Shown here piece after piece: positions 6,034 to 52,456 of a stretch of 64,000 nucleotides of DNA. The position numbers and the translations under genes were made by a program. The notes beneath the pieces were generated by a model. That model saw nothing but the letters and a program-made list of their open reading frames with translations. It was not told where the DNA came from and did not search any database. This stretch comes from Dictyostelium discoideum (taxonomy: Eukaryota): positions 4,800,001 through 4,864,000 of the forward strand of contig CM000153.2 of NCBI GenBank assembly GCA_000004695.1, given 5' to 3'. Every line of letters starts with the position of its first letter. The stretch's first letter is position 1.

Positions 6034-6948
6034 TTAAGCTTTAACAATTTTAACAGTTGAAAATGATGGATTTAAAGTTGCAGATACAAAACCAAATGAG
6101 AAAGAATCGCCAGCTTGAAGATTAACAACAAATGGTGGGAAACTTAAATTACCAGTTTTTTGACTTCTTACAATATTCCAAAATTCAGTTGGATTCCAAT
6201 TATCAGAATGAATTTCAATTGATTTAATTGGTGAACTTTCATTATTGGTTAATGTGACTTTATATTGATAATATGTTACACCATTGGCTACCCAATTACT
6301 ATCAGTATCTAATTTATAATTGATTTTTGGTGTTCCAACTGGTGGTGTTGTTGGAGCAACTGTTGGTGTTGGTGTAACTGTTGGAGTAACTGTTGGTGTA
6401 TTACAAGGTTCACCATAATTAAGTTTTGGACATGTATCATATGATTTTAACTAAAAAATTTATTATATTAAATAATTGATTTGAATTAAATTAATGATAA
6501 TAGTTATAATTATAATAATAATAAAAATACATACTGCAACTGTATAATAAAAGTTATTTAAATTGAAGAAACCAACATTACCATTACAAGTAAGTTGAGT
6601 ATTAGTTTGTTTTAATCTAAGATTACCATCACTTAATCTAATACTAAAATCATCAACACGGAATTGATAATCAGCTGCAAATGGTTGAACTAATCCACGA
6701 GAACTACATGTTGTTTCATAGGTTTGTAAATTGTATAATGATTCCCTTAATACAAATTCACCAGATGCAAAAACTAAATTACCTTTATAACCTTCTTGAG
6801 CCAATGATTGATAATGAACACCAGAGATTGAAACTTGAACACATTTTGATGGATCAGCTAATGATGAAAGTAATTGATTACAACTGGTATCACCAAATGC
6901 AACTGATGAAACACCTAATAATGCAACTAATGAATATAATAATTTCAT
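6034..6948 (-). CDS. Secreted protein with Pro/Thr-rich linker and C-terminal carbohydrate-binding-like domain; exons 6535..6948 and 6034..6450
   Basis: ATG at 6948, signal peptide MKLLYSLVALLGVSSVAFG. Donor GTATGT sits at 6534-6533 (rc) after ...FYYTVA. Acceptor TTTTTTAG, exon 2 starts at 6450, stop TAA at 6034-6036. Exon 2 encodes LKSYDTCPKLNYGEPCNTPTVTPTVTPTPTVAPTTPPVGTPKINYKLDTDSNWVANGVTYYQYKVTLTNNESSPIKSIEIHSDNWNPTEFWNIVRSQKTGNLSFPPFVVNLQAGDSFSFGFVSATLNPSFSTVKIVKA. A PT-linker followed by an aromatic-rich beta domain is typical of Dictyostelium cellulose-binding or cell-wall proteins; this is a domain guess. Confidence 0.5.
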
Positions 6949-7486
6949 TTTTTATTTTTCTTTTTTTCTTTTTTTTTTTTTGATAAATAAATAAATATAA
7001 AATTTAATAGGATTTAAAATAATAAATAAATAAATATTTAATGTTTTATGTTTAATATTTAATGAAAATTATATTTTTTTTTTTTCCTTTTTATAATTTT
7101 TTTCCTTTTTTTTTTTTTTTCCTTTTTATAATTTTTTTTTCCTTTTTTTATTGTTATAATATTTTTTTATTTTTTTAAAGTTTACATAAATTATAAAAAC
7201 CAGTGTCATTTTATATTGATTTTTTTTCTATAATTGTATATTCGAGAATGTGTTGGTGTGAATGTAATAAATTGTGTGAGTGGGTTGGAGTTTGAAAAAA
7301 AAAAGTTTTTTTGACATGCATAACAACGACAAGCTCGTTTGGATAATACAAAATTTAATTTAACTAAACACATAATTAAAAAAAAAAAATACATTGTTGT
7401 AAAGAAATACAGATTAAAGATTTTATCCTTTTTTATATTATAAAAAAAAATAACAACATCTATGATAATTGATGATATCATTAAAA

Positions 7487-7813: not shown

Positions 7814-11421
<3,608 letters not shown>

Positions 11422-12412: not shown

Positions 12413-12787
12413 TTAATGGCATAGTGAGTGACAGCTTCCAGTTGCAATTCCAACAGATGAACTATAACCAACTGAACTTGAGTAGCTTGAGTTATAAGAA
12501 AAACCTGAACCTGAACTTTGATAGCTTGAGCTATATGAATAACTTGAGCCTCCACAAGCAGTAATACATGCAACTGAATTAGAACTCAACGACAATGAAG
12601 CACCTCCATTTGATGAAACAACAGATTTACTAATTTTATTTGGTCTTGAAATTGAAGTAATTGCAGCTATTTATTAGAAATTAAAAAAAAAAAAAAAGTT
12701 TAAAAAAAGAAAGGAACTAATTAGTTTTTTATTTTTTTTTTTTTTTTTAGTATTTTATTTTATTTTGAACATACATAAAATTGTCAT
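12413..12787 (-). CDS. HssA/2C/7E-family small Ser/Gly/Tyr-rich protein; exons 12775..12787 and 12413..12666, about 88 aa
   Basis: 13-nt first exon ATGACAATTTTAT followed by GTATGT. The 108-nt AT-rich intron ends in AAATAG. The protein is [88 protein letters not shown]. Exon 1 length and splice phase match the array at 45.5-50 kb. Confidence 0.55.
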
Positions 12788-21851: not shown

Positions 21852-24800
21852 ATGAATTTACACACAAATAATAATAATAATAATAATAATTATGTAGATG
21901 AAAATCTATTTTGGAAAGTTTATAAAAATTTGTTTATTAGAAATTTAATATTTTATAAAATCATTTCAACAACAGTCATTTATAAATATGATGATGATGA
22001 TAGTCTTAGTAGTGGTAAATTTATTGTACCTTCTGATAGAGTACAATTTAAAAATATAATTTCTTTATCATGGATTGTTAAAAGAAATTTATGGTCATTA
22101 TTAAAGTATAAATTAATTAGTAATGAAGAATTAATTATAAAGAAAAAAGCAATAGAATTACTATTACAAGAATGTAAACATGATAAAGATTTATTAAAAC
22201 TAATCTATCAAAACAAGTATTATCAAATGAATCAAATCGATTTAATTTTAAATTCAATTAAACATTCAAATTTAATGGCATTAAAATTATTCATTGAAGA
22301 ATATAATTTACCGACAAATAATAATTCAATGGATATGGCATTAGAAATTGCAAGTAAACAATATTATAGAAATGAAGAAGAACAAAAACAATCATTTGAA
22401 GTTTTTCAATTTTTTTGGGAAAAGAAAAAAGATACTCTTCAATGCACTCAATCAGAGTTATTCAATCAAAATAGAAATTATAATGCATATATGTTACAAT
22501 TAATTTTAAATAATCCAAGTTTATATGGTGAATCTTTACAATCAAATAATAATAATAATAATAATAGTAGTAGTAATAATATTGGTTTAATGACATCAAG
22601 AGAATTTTTTAATCTTGCAGTTATGTCAGTAATACCTGAAAAAATTAAAATTGAATTACTTAATAGAGGATTCGTTAAAAATGAAAAAAGTATATATCGT
22701 GATGGTGATTATATTGCTAAAACAATTCAAAAGCAATCACCATATCTTCCAAAATCAATTTATAGTTATTTAGAAAAGAGTTATCAAAAGAATGAATTAT
22801 ATGAAAATCGTACCATTTCAGTTTTTTATTTTTTTAAAATATTAATTGAATATCCTGAAAAAGAAGATTCTCTTTCAATTTTAAAAGATTTCGTTAATGT
22901 AGCATACAAATTTACAGATTTAGAAATTAGATCATATAATACATTATCACTTAATCCAAATAGTTATAAAGCAGGTCAAAAAGTAGAAATTTTACAAGCT
23001 ATTTCAAGTTTTAATTTTACATTGAAAATTAAGATAATTGAGTCACTATTTCCAATTGATTCATTAACATTAGAATCTACACGATTCATTTTCGATAGAT
23101 TAAAATCTTCAATTGATAATGCTGGAACAATGAAACATGTTTCAAAGGCAGAATTAATTCCACAAAGTTTATATCATTTGAATATTATAAAAACAGCAGA
23201 TGTAGAATTACTTGACCAATTTTTAAATCACTTTCATTCAGATGCTGAAAGAAATTTAATATTTAAAATTGATGATGAAAATCCATTAAATAAAGATTAT
23301 TTCAAAGATTGCTCAATTCAAGATAGTGAAAAGATATCAAAATTCATTGACAAACTATCAAGTGTTAAAGAATTCAATTCAAATTCAAAATCATTTTTAA
23401 ATTGTTTAAAATCAAAACTTTTACCAATTTCGAGTGAATTATATATTTCAAGTTTATTAAAATTTAAAGAAACATCACGTAAACAAACCTATGTACACGC
23501 AAAAGTTTTAGATGAAACATTGTGTGATTTCTTTTCAGAAAAGAATAATTTTAAATCAAATTTAACATCATTTATTAAATTCATTAATTTTAGAAGTTTA
23601 TCAATTACATATCTCGTTGAAAAAGTTTTATTTTCCAATGATTTTGAACTTATAGAATTATTATTAAATACAATATGTAATAATAATAATAATTATGGCG
23701 CAGGTATTATAATGGTTCCAGTTTCATTTAAAACATCTAATCCTGACATAATTAAATTAATCATTTCGAAAAGTAATTGGCATAAATTATTTGATTTTAA
23801 AGGTTTAATCGATACAGTTATTAGTGATAGCAATGTTTGTAATATTAGTAATCCAAATACCGATTCTCAAACCATTGAATTAATTGAAACTGTTATTGAT
23901 TTTTTACATTCAAATAAAATTTATCAAAGAAATTCAAAAGAAGGATTTGGATTTGGATTTGGATTTGGAACAACGAATCAACAAGAAAATCACACTGAAA
24001 AAACAATAATTTCCAACGATGCAACAAAGATTGCACTTTTAAAAAAGAAATCCATTAAAATTTTACAACTTTTATTAAAATATAAAAATTTGTTTGATTG
24101 GGATTCACAATTATTTCCAAAACTTCCAAAATTACCAACAATTCAATTGGATGATGAAATACTTCCAAAATCAGATAAACCAATAATGTCAATTTATGAA
24201 CAACAAGAATTAGAAGACCAAGATTTATATCAATCTAGAAGAAGAAAGCCAAAAAATAAACATGGTGGTGGACGTGGTAGAAGAAGAATTGATACCTATA
24301 ATGACACTGCTTATGATGGCACCAATAACAACATTCCCTATATCGGTAGTATTGGTGGTAGTGTTTTTGCAAGTACTGAAGATTCAGTCAATGGTGGTGG
24401 TAGTGGTTTTTATAGTAGTAGTAGTAGTATTGGTAGTATTAGTAGTATTAGTAGTATTAGTAGTATTAGTAGTAGTAATAATAATAATGAATTAGGTAGT
24501 GATCAAAGTCAATTTATTCTAGGTGGTAATTTCACAGGTTTTAGTGGCAATTATCAGAGTAAAAGTAAAGATAAAAAAAAGATTAGAAATCTATACAATA
24601 CCAATTTCCTTGATAAATTTAAAACACATCAAGCTCAATCAATATTTGATACAATGGACCAATTATTCACTAGAAATTATACGTTTTCATTTGCATACAC
24701 GAGTGATAGTGTTTTTCAAGATTCAATATATCATTCAATAAAGAATAGAAGAATTGATGTAATTGAAAAATTAATAACTATTCAAATGTTTACAGATAAT

Positions 24801-44156: not shown

Positions 44157-44240
44157 CCGGCTTTGGCGCAATGGTAGCGCGATTGACTGTAGTATTAATT
44201 AGTGATCAATCGGTTGCTAGTTCGAATCTGGCAAGCCGGA
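44157..44240 (+). tRNA. tRNA-Tyr (anticodon GUA) with 12-nt intron
   Basis: Acceptor stem CCGGCTT/AAGCCGG; D-arm GCGC-AATGGTA-GCGC; anticodon stem ATTGA/TCAAT with loop CTGTAG. The intron TATTAATTAGTG sits after position 37. T-arm GCTAG-TTCGAAT-CTGGC; discriminator A. An intron at 37/38 is canonical for eukaryotic tRNA-Tyr. Confidence 0.8.
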
Positions 44241-45410: not shown

Positions 45411-45532
45411 ACAATACATATATATTGTAAAATAATAAATAAAAATAAAAAAAAAAAAATAATTAAAATAAATAAATAAATTTATTAATTGGGAGGGGGA
45501 AAGGTTAAAAGTAACAATATGAATTTTAAAAT

Positions 45533-45826
45533 TTAGAGAACTTTAGCTTTAATATGAATTCCAAGTAAACCTAATAAATTGGCCATAATATCAGCATTGA
45601 TTAAACTTGTTGATTGATTACCACCAAATGAAGAAGTCATTCCTTTGGTATTACTTGAATTTACAGAGATTGTTTTGTTCAAAGAATTACCATTTTGAAT
45701 TGAACCAATGCTAGAAATTGAAGCTAAATAATTAAATAATTAAAATTTAGAAATCGAGGAGTTGTAATAAAAAAAAAAAAAAAAAAGAAATAATAATAAT
45801 ATTTTATATTTACAAATTAATGTCAT
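45533..45826 (-). CDS. HssA/2C/7E-family small protein, array copy A; exons 45814..45826 and 45533..45723
   Basis: ATGACATTAATTT followed by GTAAAT; 90-nt intron; acceptor TTATTTAG. Protein MTLI-S-SISSIGSIQNGNSLNKTISVNSSNTKGMTSSFGGNQSTSLINADIMANLLGLLGIHIKAKVL*. Confidence 0.6.
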
Positions 45827-45875
45827 TTTGTTTGTTTGTTTGTTTGTTTGTTTGTTTGTTTGTTTGTTTGTTGAT
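45827..45875. repeat. (GTTT)n, about 11 units, abutting the start codon of copy A on the opposite strand
   Basis: ttgtttgtttgtttg... run. Confidence 0.85.
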
Positions 45876-46919
45876 TTGTTTATTTAAATTTTTGATTTAG
45901 TGAAAAAAAAAGTTTAATTTATAGAAAAAAAAAAAAAAAATACATTATTAAGAAAAATGATAATAATATTTAAAAATAATACAATAGTACAGTTTTTTAC
46001 TAAAAATATTTGAAATACATTTGATTATTAAAGAAGTAAAATTATTTTAAAAAGGAATAGATCAGTTTTGTTGAACTTTCTTTCTAATAATAATTTTAAA
46101 ATCTAGATAAAATATCTAATTTCAATTAATCAATATAAAGATCTAACTTTATTAAGTGGGAAAATAAATAAATGATATTTGTAAACAGAACAATGTTTTA
46201 GTGCCCTATTAAAAAAAAAATTAAAAAATTAAATCTCACCCACTTTTCTTTAACCACACAAACACAAAAAATTTTTTTTTTTCTCTTTTTAGTTTCAAGA
46301 TTTACCAATTTCTTTTAATAATCAATGTATATTGTGATATATTTGTTTGTTTGAAATTATTATTAATTTTAATTAATGATAGTTTATATATATTAAAAGA
46401 AGGAAGAAAATTTAATATCCAATTATAATAAAAAAAAAACAATAAAACTATTAATGTACAACCACTGAACATTAAAAAATAAAACTGTTTCTAGAATAAT
46501 TTTGGTTTATTTTATTAAAAAGAAAACCCTTAGAATATGTTGATAATATTGATAGTCAATATGTAATTGAAAAAAATAAAAATAAAATAAAATAAAATAA
46601 AATAAAATAAAATCACAAACCCACAGATTCTATTTTTTTATTTTTCTTTTTTTTTTTTTCCTTTTTTTTTTTTAAAACAAAATTAAACCCCCAAAAGTTT
46701 ACTATAATTTTATATATAAAAAAATTAATAAAAAGTAAAAATGGAAAATAATTGTAGAAAATTTTTTCTTTTATTTTTTATTTTTATAGTTAATTTAATT
46801 CTGAAAAATGATTAATTTAATCAAACTATAATAATTATAATTATAATCTATAGTAGAATTAATAATTTTATATTTTAAAATATATTTAATAAATTTAATA
46901 TTAAATTTGGCTTTTAATA

Positions 46920-47186
46920 TTAAAGTTGGGTAAATTGAATATATTTCAAGTAATTTGATCTATTAGGTATTCTTAAAATAGATATTGTAGATTGATTTCC
47001 ACTAAATGATGTTAATCCTTTTGCTCCATTATTGGAAATTGTACTGTTAGTTTTATTCAAAGAATTAAAGTTTTGAATTGAACCAATTTTAGAAATTGAA
47101 GCTAGATTCGAAAAAAAAAAAGATTTAAAATCAATACTAATTAATTAATATTAAAAATATAATTAATAATTACAAAATAAAGTCAT
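46920..47186 (-). CDS. HssA/2C/7E-family small protein, array copy B; exons 47174..47186 and 46920..47101
   Basis: ATGACTTTATTTT followed by GTAATT; 72-nt intron; acceptor AATCTAG. Protein MTLF-S-SISKIGSIQNFNSLNKTNSTISNNGAKGLTSFSGNQSTISILRIPNRSNYLKYIQFTQL*. Exon 2 is 182 nt, as 2 + 60 codons, consistent. Confidence 0.5.
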
Positions 47187-47815
47187 TTTTAAAGTTTTAG
47201 TTTTTTGTTTTTTGTTTTTTAATAATTTTATTTAATGATAAAAAAAAAGTTTAATTTATACAAATAAAATTTATAATTATAAATTAAATAATTAAAATTA
47301 AAAAATATTATTTTGAAAGATAAATTTAATAAAAAATAAAAAAATTCCCCTTTTGGAAAGTGAATTACAAGGTTTCAGTGAACAAGAGGATAATCTGTGC
47401 ACATGTTTTATATATTTTGAAATAATTTCATTTCAAAACCATTTGCTATTTTTAAAAAAAAAATATTTTTAATTTAATAAAAATCTAAAGAATAAAAAAA
47501 AAAATTCAACAATTTCAAATAACATAACCGAACATTTTTTTAAAAAAAAAAGAAATTAATATGAACACAACCACACCAAAACTCCTGGCACACAAATCAA
47601 CACAGCCACAAAAACTAAAAAAAATTGTGATGTTTGGTTTTTAAAGAGCATTATTCAATTAAATAGGGTGGTACACAAGAAATTCTTCATTGTTTTTCTT
47701 TTTTATCATTACATCTTTTTTTTTTAAAAATAATAATTAAGCTTTTAAAATAATTTATTGTTATTCATTTTTTTTTTTTGTTTTTTTTTTTTTTTTTTAA
47801 TTTCAAATCGGTTCA

Positions 47816-48078
47816 TCAAAAAAGCTTTCCAAAAAAGTAATAAGATCTACCCATATATATGGTAGATTGATTTCCACTAAATGAGGTTAATCCTTTTGCT
47901 TCATTATTAGACATTGTACTGTTAGTTTTGTTTTCGTTAATAGAATTACCGTTTTGAATTGAACCAATTTTGGAAACTGAAGCTAAATTTTAAAAAAAAA
48001 AAAAAAAATTTAAAAAATCAATACTATTTAATTAAAATTAAAATTAAAATTTATTTAATATTTCCAAAATAAAGTCAT
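47816..48078 (-). pseudogene. hssA-family array copy C with destroyed first-intron donor
   Basis: First exon ATGACTTTATTTT is followed by GG instead of GT; the plus strand has tcc where copies B, D and E have tac. The read-through frame stops after MTLFWKY. The exon-2 homolog 47816..47982 still encodes SSVSKIGSIQNGNSINENKTNSTMSNNEAKGLTSFSGNQSTIYMGRSYYFFGKLF*. Confidence 0.5.
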
Positions 48079-48738
48079 TTTAAAGTTTTTGTTTTTTGTT
48101 TTTGATTTTGATTTGTTAAAAAATATTTTAATGATAAAAAAAAAGTTTAATTTATGCAAATAAAATTTATAATTAAAAATTAAAATAATTAATTTTAATA
48201 CTTATTTTGAATAACATTTCTTTGTTCAATGATGCAAGGTCTATATTAATTTTTAAACCAAACATGAAAAAAAGCTCTTCCTTTTTGGTTAGTGAATTAC
48301 AAAGTTCCAGTTACAATTATGACGCAATTCAGTGTGTGTTTTATTTATTTGGAAAAAAAAAAAATACTTCATTTGTAATTTTTCATAAATAAAAATAAAT
48401 TTGAAAATAAAAATAAAAATAAAAAATAAAACTTTTGACCAACCACAAAAATAAAACACTTGAAAAAATAATAAAAAATTTTCTCATTTGGTGGGTGATG
48501 CAATAAACAATGTGTGTTGAGATATGCGCTATTTATTTTATAAAAAATTATTTTTATTATTTAAAAAAAGAATAAATTATCAATTGTCCCATTACAATTT
48601 TATCACTTTAATCTCATAAGCCCTATTAATATCAGGTAAAGTTATTTAATCAACTGCTTCAGGTCAATATTGTAATTATCGATTTTTTATTGTTCTTACA
48701 ACCAAAGTTGAACATTATTAAAACAAAATAACCAAAAC

Positions 48739-48960
48739 TTTAAAAAAAATAATCTAGGTTTTTAATATTAAATCCTTTTACTTCATTATTAGAAATTGTA
48801 CTGTTAGTTTTGTTCAAAGAAATACCATTTTGAATTGAACCAATTTTAGAAATTGAAGCTATATTAAAAAAAAAAAAAAAAAAAAAGATTTAAAAATCAA
48901 TACTAATTAATTAATTAATTAACATTAAAAATATAAATAATAATTACAAAATAAAGTCAT
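48739..48960 (-). pseudogene. hssA-family array copy D, frameshifted and truncated
   Basis: Exon 1 ATGACTTTATTTT followed by GTAATT is intact (48948..48960). Exon 2 from 48858 reads SSISKIGSIQNGISLNKTNSTISNNEGKRI* because an indel after ...AATGAAG shifts the frame; the downstream portion is also deleted. Confidence 0.45.
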
Positions 48961-49723
48961 TTTGAAGTTTTAGTTTTTTGTTTCTGATTTGTTAATAATT
49001 AATTTTAATGATTAAAAAAAGTTTTATTTATACAAATAAAATTTATGATTAAAAATTAAATAAATCAAATTATATTATTTTCAATTTAAATTTAATTCAA
49101 AAAAATTAATTTTAAAATAATTAATTTTAATACTTATTTTGATTAACATTTGTTTGTTCAATGATGTAAGGTCTATATTTATTTATAAACTCAACACAAA
49201 AATTTACCCATTTGTTAACTGAATTACCAAGTTTCTGTGACCTCGAGGATAACACAATTCGGTGTGTTTTATTTATTTAAAAAGTAAAAAATAATAATAT
49301 TTATTATTATTTTTTTTTTTTTTTTTTAGTTAATTTTTTTATTTATTTATTTAAAATCAATGCTAGGTTTGAAGTGTAATAGTAATAAATTTTATTTATT
49401 TGAACTTTAATTTTTTGATTAATAGAATTTTTATTATTTGGAAACACAATGTAGTTCCAAAGTTTTGCTTTTTTTTTTTTTTTATTTTTTTTTTTAAATT
49501 TTTTTTTTTTATTTTTAAATTTTTTTTTATTTTATTTTATTTATGGTTAAAATCACTGCAGGGAAATTTACAAATATATTTAAAGCGATTTGATATATTT
49601 GGAAGTCACTCACTAAAAGAGAAAAAAGTGGGATAACTCATTAAAAAAGAAGAAAAAAATTGGAATTAAAAAAAAATAAATTGTTTATTTTTGTTTTTTT
49701 TTTTTTTAGAGAAAAAGATGGGC

Positions 49724-49992
49724 TTATTTATTTTTTGTTGTGGCTTTAGTAATTATAGCAATTTGAAGTAATAAATCCCCTATAGATTTTGTTGATTGAT
49801 TTCCGCTAAATGATGGTGATCCTTTAGCTTCATTGTTAGAAATTGTACTGGTAATTTCGTTCAAAGAATTACCGTTTTTAATTGTGCCAATTTTAGAAAT
49901 TGAGGCTAAATTAAAAAAAAAAAAAAAAATTTAAAATCAATACCAATTAATTAATTTTAAAAATATAATTAATAATTACATAACAAAGTCAT
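49724..49992 (-). CDS. HssA/2C/7E-family small protein, array copy E; exons 49980..49992 and 49724..49905
   Basis: ATGACTTTGTTAT followed by GTAATT; 74-nt intron; acceptor AATTTAG. Protein MTLL-S-SISKIGTIKNGNSLNEITSTISNNEAKGSPSFSGNQSTKSIGDLLLQIAIITKATTKNK*. Exon 2 is 182 nt, verified by count. Confidence 0.5.
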
Positions 49993-50910
49993 TTTAAAGT
50001 TTTAGTTTTTTGATTTTTATTTAAGGTTTTTGTTTTGTTTCTGATTTGTTAATAATTATTTAATGATGAAAAAAAAAGTTTAATTTATACAAATAAAATT
50101 TATAATTAAAAATTAAATAATTTAAATTAAAAAATATTATTTTGAAAGATAAATTTAATAAAAAATAAAAATAATTAATTTAATACTTATTTTGATTAAC
50201 ATTTCTTTGTTCAATGATGTAAGGTCTATATTAATTTTTAAACCAAACACAAAAAAAAACTATACCCTTTTGAGAACTGAATTACAAAGTTCCAGTTACG
50301 CTATTCGGTGTGTGTTTTATTTTTTTGGAAAAAAAAAAAAAAAAATACATAATTTGTAATTTTTCATAAATAAAAATAAAAATAAAAATAAAAATAAAAA
50401 TAAAATAAAAAATATATTTTTAAAACTTTTGATCAACCACAAAGATTAAACACAATCATAATAAAAAATTTCTGTTGGTAAGTGACGCAATAATCAATGT
50501 GTGTGTTGAGATATGTGCTATTTATTAAAAAAAATTATTTTTAATTTAATAATTATAATTAAAAAAGAGAATAAATTATTTCAAACTACATAATTGAACA
50601 TTTTTTTAAAAAAATGAAATTTATATGAACAAAAACACACCAAAACTCCTTATACACCAACCCGCACAGCCACAAAAATCACCAAAACTTTGTGATGATT
50701 GTTTTTTAGAGCATTGGATTAAATGGGTTGGTGCACAAGAAATTCTTCATTTTTTTTTTTTATCAATTGCCCCATGCCAATTTTATCACATTAATTTCAT
50801 TTATTATTATACATTTTTGGATTTATGAAAGCAAATAAAAAATAAACAAATTTTCGAGAAAAAAGGCTTTTTTGAAAAAAAAATAAGGGAAAATTTTTTT
50901 TTGTTTTTAA

Positions 50911-51410
50911 TATGAACGTTTTTGGAAAAGAAGAATCAGATGAACCATTATTACCAGGTGTCCAAATTATTATTACATCAAATAGAACCTCAATTGCTGA
51001 TTAAAATGGTAAATACTCATTAAAAGATCAAGTACCAGGTTCATATTGTAAAAATGATTTTCCAGATCATTACATTCCACTCAAATATCAATTACATTAC
51101 CAATAGTCTTCAACAATCACCTATATTGATGGTGAGTTTCAATCATTTATAAGTAGGTGATTATTGCATCAAAGCAACACAACCAGATATATACCCATTT
51201 GTTGTAACTTCAAATGATTCAGTTGTTGACTCAACAGGCTAATTTTGTTTCAAACTAACACATTTAATCCAACTACAGCAACAACCTCGGCAACATGATT
51301 AAACTTCACAAACTCTATTTTAATAATGTCAAATTTGAATCAGTTACTAAATTAGGTTATGGATTCAATAGAAATTTAAACCTCCGATGACAACACCATT
51401 TGGAAAGAAT
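50911..51410 (+). pseudogene. Decayed fragment of a colossin/CarboxypepD_reg-like repeat protein with multiple in-frame stops
   Basis: The frame from ATG 50911 reads NVFGKEESDEPLLPGVQIIITSNRTSIAD*NGKYSLKDQVPGSYCKNDFPDHYIPLKYQLHYQ*SSTITYIDGEFQSFISR*... This is the carboxypeptidase-regulatory-like beta-sandwich pattern (P-G-V-x-I...T-D-x-x-G-x-Y-x-L...PG-x-Y), with TAA, TAG and TGA at positions where sense codons are expected. Confidence 0.35.
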
Positions 51411-52456
51411 GTTAATAGTAATAGTAATAGTAATAGTAATAGCATTAATAAGTAACCACAACTAATACAAACACAACGGCCAACTAACACAACAGCCGCC
51501 ACAAGTTCTTTTACAATATAATCAAATTGAACAATCAATGAAAATGTGTTATCTTGTAAATTTAAATCATCTATCAAAATCATTAGATTCAATTAAACTT
51601 AGTGGTGTGAATTAGTTTCTAAGTAATTAATAATCAAATTAGTGCTCTTAGTAATAGTGATATTTTAGCAAAAACTAAAATCGGTTATTTTAAATGTTTT
51701 TTTTTATTAATTCATCTTTTTTTAAAAATAATAATAAAACTTTTTAAATAAATATTTATTATTTATTGTTTTTTATTATTTTTATTTTTATTTATTTTAT
51801 CAGTTAATTTTTTTCTTTCCTAAATTTAATTTAATTTTTTATTTTTAAAACCTATAATTTTGTTTATTTGCAAATTTTGGGTAATCTGATTATTTAATCA
51901 AAGTTTGAATTAAATAATAATAGAAATAAATTTTTTTTTTTTTTTTTGAACGTTAATTTTTAATTTTAAAAAAGGGAATAGATTTTGATTAAAAATTCTA
52001 TTAACAATTAAAAATGAAGAAAGAATAGAATTAGTAAAGGATTAAACTTTGTCAGAAACTAAACCTTTAAATCTAGATTTAAAAATAAAAATAAAGATTA
52101 AATCCCAATCAATAAAAACAAATTAATTAAATCATTTAAGTAAACATATAAAAAAACAAAAAAAAAAAAAAAAACGTGTGTTTTAAAACTTTTGAATAAC
52201 CACACTATATTAAAAAAAAAATTCTTTTAATATTTTAGATTTGAAGATTTACAAATATATAAAAAATGATGCAATAATAAATGCAAATGATGAGATGATA
52301 AAAGAAAAAACTATTTTTCATTTGTAAGTTAGATTTTATTTTTTTTTTTAAAAAAGTATTGTTTGTTTGTTAAAAAAAAAAAATATAAAAAGGGATAAAG
52401 AAAATTTATAAATCATTTCAAAATAAAAAAAACAACAATCAAATAAATAATTTAAA

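Follow-up and report, generated by a model that had tools for sequence, protein, structure and literature searches.

Evidence for local birth and death in a tandem cluster of sigN/hssA/2C/7E-type mini-genes of Dictyostelium discoideum

The 64,000-nucleotide (nt) stretch of Dictyostelium discoideum DNA analysed here (GenBank assembly GCA_000004695.1, contig CM000153.2, positions 4,800,001 to 4,864,000; hereafter the window) contains an array of five very small genes, which we call copies A to E, and three outlying loci of the same kind, F to H. We conclude, with a probability of about 85%, that the window holds a tandem cluster of mini-genes of the sigN/hssA/2C/7E type, in which the younger copies A to D stand beside the older genes E and F, and which is best read as undergoing local birth and death. 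A preliminary description of the window, made from the sequence alone and re-examined here claim by claim, had proposed that the array records such events in place. This reading is essentially right: the units lie head to tail, and their copy number is unlike that of the sister species D. firmibasis at the syntenic site.

A pattern search for the first-exon motif over the whole window found exactly eight loci, and gene models were built by taking the closest in-frame AG as the acceptor for each 13-nt exon (Table 1). The same eight loci, the three outlying ones included, had been placed at correct coordinates in the preliminary description, and tblastn gave no ninth family member in the window. 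One candidate for a ninth, at 24414-24566, was rejected as an SSSIGSISS low-complexity run within a long open reading frame (ORF). All eight loci have a 13-nt coding first exon, one short intron and the rest of the ORF in exon 2 (C with a mutated donor), and encode small products (43-88 amino acids, aa) with the N-terminal motif MT(L/I)xS(S/A)I(S/T). The five minus-strand copies of the array share, as had been claimed, a first exon encoding MTLx plus one base, a short AT-rich phase-1 intron (72-90 nt) and a second exon, here modelled at ~120-190 nt; the exon-1 consensus previously written for them was 14 nt long, one T too many. The acceptor is in phase 1 in all eight models, and the Ser at the junction is regenerated from the 13th base (T) and two bases of exon 2, in agreement with the earlier account. 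The copies are also missing from the ORF listing, as noted there: at a cut-off of 60 aa no exon-2 frame is listed, and only fragments of 32-49 aa that start with TTG or ATG are present.

Table 1. Mini-genes and upstream elements in the window (window coordinates; exon 2 includes the stop codon).
Feature	Position	Strand	Exon 1	Intron	Exon 2	Product	Remarks
Copy A	start 49992	-	49980-49992	49906-49979 (GT..AG, 74 nt)	49724-49905	64 aa	
Copy B	start 48960	-	48948-48960	48859-48947 (89 nt)	48740-48858	43 aa	
Copy C	start 48078	-	48066-48078	83 nt, donor GG	47816-47982	59 aa	
Copy D	start 47186	-	47174-47186	47102-47173 (72 nt)	46920-47101	64 aa	
Copy E	start 45826	-	45814-45826	45724-45813 (90 nt)	45533-45723	67 aa	
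Locus F	52457 (start) to 52748	+		97 nt		64 aa	
Locus G	26186 (start) to 25895	-		70 nt		73 aa	Cys/Pro-rich tail; cup-cell-specific hssA clade
Locus H	12787 (start) to 12413	-		108 nt		88 aa	canonical hssA/B-type; fits sigN164 by structure; relatives found
Proximal promoter, unit A	50044-50364	-					TATAAA 50084-50089 and oligo-T; block AAAACACACACCGAAT..ACTGGAACTTTGTAATTCA; G-box 50307-50315
Distal upstream block	50513-50765	-					G+C-richer; GTG-rich G-box-like motifs

Copies A to D are head-to-tail units, 73-84% identical over 350-850 nt according to direct-repeat search, multiple alignment and dust-filtered BLAST (344-600 bits), and the identity spans the promoter, the 5' untranslated region, exon 1, the intron and most of exon 2. 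The start-to-start distances from A to E are 1032, 882, 892 and 1360 nt. The view of the five copies as one array stands insofar as the units align as tandem duplicates in each of these analyses, but E is not a sibling of the others: its identity to A-D is only 68-71%, and it is an older conserved paralogue, with F of the same type.

The syntenic D. firmibasis locus (L001) aligns together with the flanking genes on both sides. It carries one E-type and three F-type genes within 2.9 kb, all four intact, and no copy of the A-D type was found in this interval. Over 6.6 kb, the corresponding D. discoideum interval has E, A-D, the relic of a gene, and F. The birth-and-death reading would be explained if an E-like gene was duplicated head to tail with its promoter in the D. 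discoideum lineage, and if the array then grew by unequal crossing-over of promoter-plus-gene units of ~0.9-1 kb; one derivative, A, would have stayed strongly expressed, B, C and D would have come to carry disabling or suspicious lesions, and the ancestral E and F genes would have remained under constraint.

The conservation of the E/F type is most evident at its C-terminus. The tail of E (SLINADIMANLLGLLGIHIKAKVL) is conserved, and the gene has a D. firmibasis orthologue; F is a second gene of this type with a conserved tail, the type present in D. firmibasis as three tandem copies. The tail STSLI(N/D)xDIMANLLGILGIHIKAKVL is common to E, F, the paralogue DDB_G0282551 on chromosome 3 and the genes of D. 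firmibasis, and over it the ratio of nonsynonymous to synonymous substitution rates (dN/dS) is 0.02-0.22, compared with 0.3-1.06 over the N-terminal block. A HMMER profile search of 1.84 billion representatives added relatives of 64-66 aa in D. purpureum (two tandem genes), Polysphondylium violaceum (three clustered genes), Acytostelium subglobosum and Cavenderia fasciculata, and the loci of these relatives in all four species have the 13-nt first exon, the GT donor and the phase-1 acceptor. A tail of the form SL(I/A)(N/D)x(N/D)I(L/M)ANLLGILGIxIxAKVL is present in E, F and the relatives from five species, D. firmibasis among them; the aligned subfamily starts with MTLISxISxxGS and ends with LxxLGxxGIxxxAxVL. 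In the AlphaFold2 model of E, which has a mean predicted local distance difference test score of 56 and was used for the tail helix only, the sole helix covers residues 48-66. This segment is moderately hydrophobic (Kyte-Doolittle mean over 19 residues 1.43) and is not amphipathic (hydrophobic moment 0.11). The E/F subfamily is thus found in all major dictyostelid groups, and its C-terminal hydrophobic helix is strongly constrained.

The conserved tail is absent from A-D, where A holds only a diverged in-frame remnant of it. A-D arose more recently, by local expansion of an E-like gene, and the tail has been lost in all of them. It is conceivable, with somewhat less than even chances, that E and F represent an ancient small-protein lineage older than the dictyostelid radiation, perhaps ancestral to the group-4 hssA/sigN expansion, and that A is a young, very highly expressed derivative without the helix, which arose by neofunctionalisation or has a role at the RNA level. 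For curators, E and F can be renamed from 'hypothetical' as members of a conserved subfamily. In L001 itself, genes have been called at 6795-7048 and 10001-10280 only, and the mini-genes at 8149 and 9302 (both on the minus strand) are uncalled. Since two of the four mini-genes at this locus were missed, gene finders for social amoebae need to handle 13-nt first exons explicitly.

The younger copies differ in their state of preservation. The preliminary description had taken A, B and E as intact, which stands for A, with its diverged tail still in frame, and for E, with its conserved tail, but not for B. The exon of A is the most diverged of A-D (83-86% identity), and its tail remains recognisably homologous to the E-type tail (GDLLLQIAIITKA against ANLLGLLGIHIKA). 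B is truncated, since its homology to the other copies stops after codon 33, near 48772; its frame closes at 43 aa. In C, exon 1 is followed by GG, not GT, as had been noted, and read-through of the unspliced sequence gives MTLFWKY*. The same copy has its TATA box altered to CATAAA (48151-48156), an indel in the tail that shifts the frame relative to A, and a 6-nt in-frame insertion; it is a pseudogene, apparently an unannotated one. D had been described as carrying a frameshift plus a deletion. Its tail is indeed frameshifted relative to A, with an insertion, and its promoter has lost ~90 nt, but its first 45 codons are unbroken; it has canonical splice sites and an open frame of 64 codons, the substitution G16F and a mutated proximal G-box. 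These lesions suggest that C is dead, B truncated and D probably dying, and that A would be the surviving, highly expressed and diverged copy.

Several observations weigh against this reading of the cluster. The absence of A-D-type copies in D. firmibasis applies to the syntenic interval, to which the comparison was confined. The join between exon 1 and exon 2 in the array copies is one that we infer from canonical sites, family precedent and the reference annotation. The decay of B and D is likewise something that we infer, since the frame of D is open and its splice sites are good, and B carries a protein-coding annotation. The introns of A-D are conserved to the same degree as the exons, and the branch-wise dN/dS estimates are based on 1-6 synonymous and 2-9 nonsynonymous changes per copy, too few to separate constraint from neutrality. 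Further, a frameshifted hssA still rescues the STATa mutant (Shimada 2008, as summarised in PMC6198379), so decay at the protein level may not equal loss of function. Finally, with the gathering score of the family's Pfam model PF05710 ('Coiled') at 21.4 bits, A, C, D, E and F gave no match and B reached 11 bits, which leaves all six under the cut-off. Their membership in the family consequently rests on gene structure, N-terminal motif, expression and curator naming, not on the domain model.

Some of these observations could be accommodated by other explanations. Protein-level function might be restricted to E and F, with A-D, the highly expressed A included, being transcribed relics or RNAs, in which case the loss of the tail would be of no consequence to them. 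This would fit the lack of the pan-dictyostelid tail in all of A-D, the conservation of the exons of A, which at 83-86% does not exceed that of its intron (89-95%), and the functionality of a frameshifted hssA (PMC6198379). Yet the tail of A is in frame and recognisably homologous to that of E (GDLLLQIAIITKA against ANLLGLLGIHIKA), pairwise comparison of A with B, C and D gives a dN/dS of ~0.3, and the value of 1244 for A at 8 h is the highest published for the cluster; we consider such an explanation unlikely, at roughly one chance in four. Slightly less probable still is that B and D are both working genes whose active part is the N-terminal 33-45 residues, the tails being free to vary, so that the array would be diversifying and not decaying. 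In favour of this, both copies have a TATA box, canonical splice sites and a frame that is open, the annotation treats B as protein-coding, D has a catalogue entry as sigN181, and B, C and D agree at 91-92% over their N-terminal blocks. Against this, the most constrained part of the conserved subfamily is the tail and not the N-terminus, promoter blocks and the G-box have been lost in D, neither B nor D has expression values in the tables searched, and the product of D is not in the current protein collection.

A trivial explanation, in which the similarity is the chance product of AT-rich low-complexity DNA and there are no genes, was suggested by the base composition of the window (21.7% G+C) and by an unfiltered BLAST of unit A against it, which was swamped by spurious AT-rich low-complexity matches. 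When the search was redone with the dust filter the units still matched at the scores given above. The products are identical to those of annotated, expressed genes, and there are orthologues in five other species. The exact protein matches, the published expression and the filtered BLAST refute this explanation. Local birth and death within a sigN/hssA/2C/7E-type cluster therefore remains the reading that we prefer.

The attribution to this family was confirmed at the level of individual products. Those predicted for A, B, E, F and G match AX4 proteins exactly, and the window is part of AX4 chromosome 4. A is sigN173 (DDB_G0286781, XP_637623, Q54LD8) and B is XP_637622 (Q54LD9), annotated with 43 aa; both are identical, residue for residue, to entries named 'hssA/2C/7E family protein' at NCBI, and A is 'Protein sigN173' in UniProt. 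E is sigN175 (DDB_G0286685, XP_637620), F is DDB_G0286689 (XP_637624) and G is DDB_G0286675, and the protein annotation of these three is 'hypothetical'. The exact products of C and D were not found in the protein collection searched. That the family is known in Dictyostelium, as the preliminary description had stated, is evident from the 2008 catalogue of sigN genes and from the annotation of A, B, E and F in AX4. Vicente et al. (2008) listed 96 sigN-related genes, 89 of which have a first-exon ORF of 13 nt (PMC2257962), and a 13-bp first exon was likewise described by Kin et al. (2018; PMC6198379). By exon, intron and product size, the chromosome 4 entries in Additional file 1 of Vicente et al. 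could be matched to A (sigN173), B (sigN178), D (sigN181), E (sigN175) and H (sigN164), with catalogue intron lengths consistently one base below those modelled here (PMC2257962); the sigN181 entry (13//181, 64 aa) fits D by structure. Two supplementary tables link sigN173 to DDB_G0286781 and sigN175 to DDB_G0286685. For the 88-aa product of H there is no exact match in the protein collection, the nearest, at 93% identity, being a 90-aa protein of a different D. discoideum assembly (ACTFIR_011565); in AX4 the gene model or the sequence may differ.

Publications of 2008 and 2018 had thus already described the family with its 13-nt exon, tandem clustering and prestalk expression, and A, B, D and E, four of the five copies in the array, were already catalogued or annotated. 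Since the family, its architecture and most of the copies are in the literature, the array was known and its description adds little. What is modestly new is the unannotated pseudogene C, the truncation of B, and the placement of E and F in a Dictyostelia-wide subfamily whose tail A-D have lost.

The genes resemble the sigN/hssA/2C/7E family in their 13-nt coding exon, single short intron, products under 120 aa and MT(L/I)xS(S/A)I(S/T)xIG N-terminus, as well as in their tandem clustering, induction at 8-12 h, prestalk enrichment and upstream G-box motifs. A profile of A-F aligned to canonical members with hhalign at a probability of 73% (E = 3e-5), over 28 N-terminal columns only. In contrast to canonical sigN proteins, which are Gly/Ser/Cys-rich with C-terminal cysteines, the products of A-F are Ser/Asn-rich (~40% Ser+Asn+Thr), have 0-1 Cys and lack the Cys-containing C-terminus; their identity to SigN1 in the catalogue is 14-22% (PMC2257962). 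Cys-containing C-termini are present in G and H, and H is the sole locus that passes PF05710 (47.7 bits), with G just under the cut-off (19.8 bits). Curators have placed A and B in the hssA/2C/7E family and named E sigN175, and B, D and H fit sigN178, sigN181 and sigN164 by structure.

The sigN genes of Group 1 and Group 2 on chromosome 2 also form multi-kb arrays of near-identical mini-genes that arose by duplication in place, and GBF-type sites are present in the promoters they share. They are ~95% identical within each group, all intact, and duplicated as head-to-head pairs (PMC2257962), whereas the present array is head-to-tail, 73-84% identical, and has lesions in three of its four young copies. 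The outlying locus G belongs to the cup-cell-specific hssA clade of Kin et al. (2018), sharing a 90%-identity cluster with the cup marker DDB_G0276687 (PMC6198379). A, E and F differ from that clade: they are genes of mid-development, of prestalk and stalk, and are hardly expressed in the cup.

Published gene-level RNA-seq values document when these genes are expressed (Additional file 5 of PMC6198379, in which Parikh 2010 is the source of the time-course, prespore and prestalk columns). A, E and F are at 0 in growing cells (hr00). At hr08, hr12 and hr16, A reaches 1244, 793 and 262, E 74, 448 and 166, and F 13, 228 and 102. Prespore and prestalk values are 10 and 64 for A, 17 and 46 for E, and 1 and 11 for F, and stalk values are 14.6, 34.7 and 22.6 transcripts per million (TPM), respectively (PMC6198379). 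Expression peaks at hr08-hr12, and prestalk exceeds prespore expression 6.5-fold in A, 2.7-fold in E and 10.7-fold in F. The three genes (sigN173, sigN175 and DDB_G0286689) are listed as 'RblA-activated during development' (Strasser et al. 2012, PMC3386910, Table S2). G reaches 50,520 TPM in cup cells and has almost nothing before 24 h (PMC6198379). For B, C and D, the search of published tables gave no values.

An element made of TATAAA and a subsequent oligo-T run is shared by A, B, D and E and lies 67-97 nt ahead of the ATG. This is the usual layout of Dictyostelium core promoters. Blocks homologous to the promoter of A lie at ~49000-49314 for B, ~48120-48383 for C and, with deletions, ~47230-47400 for D, and G-boxes occur at homologous positions ~255-315 nt upstream of A, B and C. 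The GBF response element is (T/G)G(T/G)G(T/G)G(T/G), as quoted by Vicente et al. (PMC2257962). The window contains 51 matches to KGKGKGK, when 26 ± 5 are expected, and 13 of them fall in 46254-50641, where ~3.5 would be expected pro rata. By analogy with other sigN genes, transcription would start from a TATA/oligo-T core under the control of GBF-type G-boxes. The distal upstream block of unit A has a 78% identical copy at 47441-47708, upstream of D, and pieces of it are also found upstream of C (48480-48620); it has no match in the D. firmibasis locus. A plus-strand ORF of 67 codons within it (50625-50828) has neither a Pfam match nor a D. firmibasis counterpart and was taken as non-coding. 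The block is probably promoter DNA with GTG-rich motifs, not coding sequence.

The products are predicted to be disordered, Ser/Asn-rich peptides of ~65 aa. If SigN, with its hydrophobic C-terminal segment and vesicle staining, is a guide, the activity of E and F may depend on the C-terminal helix, used for membrane association or self-association. The antibody, vesicle-staining and transmembrane-segment data on SigN suggest, by extension, roles in secretion or adhesion, and the rescue by a frameshifted hssA suggests that family members could also act at the RNA level.

The 5' leader of E, immediately ahead of the ATG, is a (CAAA)n microsatellite with ~11 units (45836-45880, minus strand), which none of the other copies has. 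Minisatellites of (ATTTT)n/(ATTTTT)n occur at 50372-50425, 48391-48431 and 46570-46620, in similar positions from unit to unit. Between A and F lies a frame-broken gene relic (50907-51650, plus strand) that begins MNVFGKEESDEPLLPGVQIIITSNRTSIAD* and runs on in other frames. It has sub-threshold Pfam matches to CarboxypepD_reg-like domains (22 bits, with a cut-off of 32), and its counterpart is absent from the syntenic D. firmibasis interval. An Rfam scan of the window found no known non-coding RNA family in the array, its sole match being a tRNA gene at 44157-44240 (plus strand; 57.8 bits). ARAGORN did not assign its anticodon cleanly ('gtag'), possibly owing to an intron in the gene; the counterpart in L001, at 12555-12657, shows 94% conservation.

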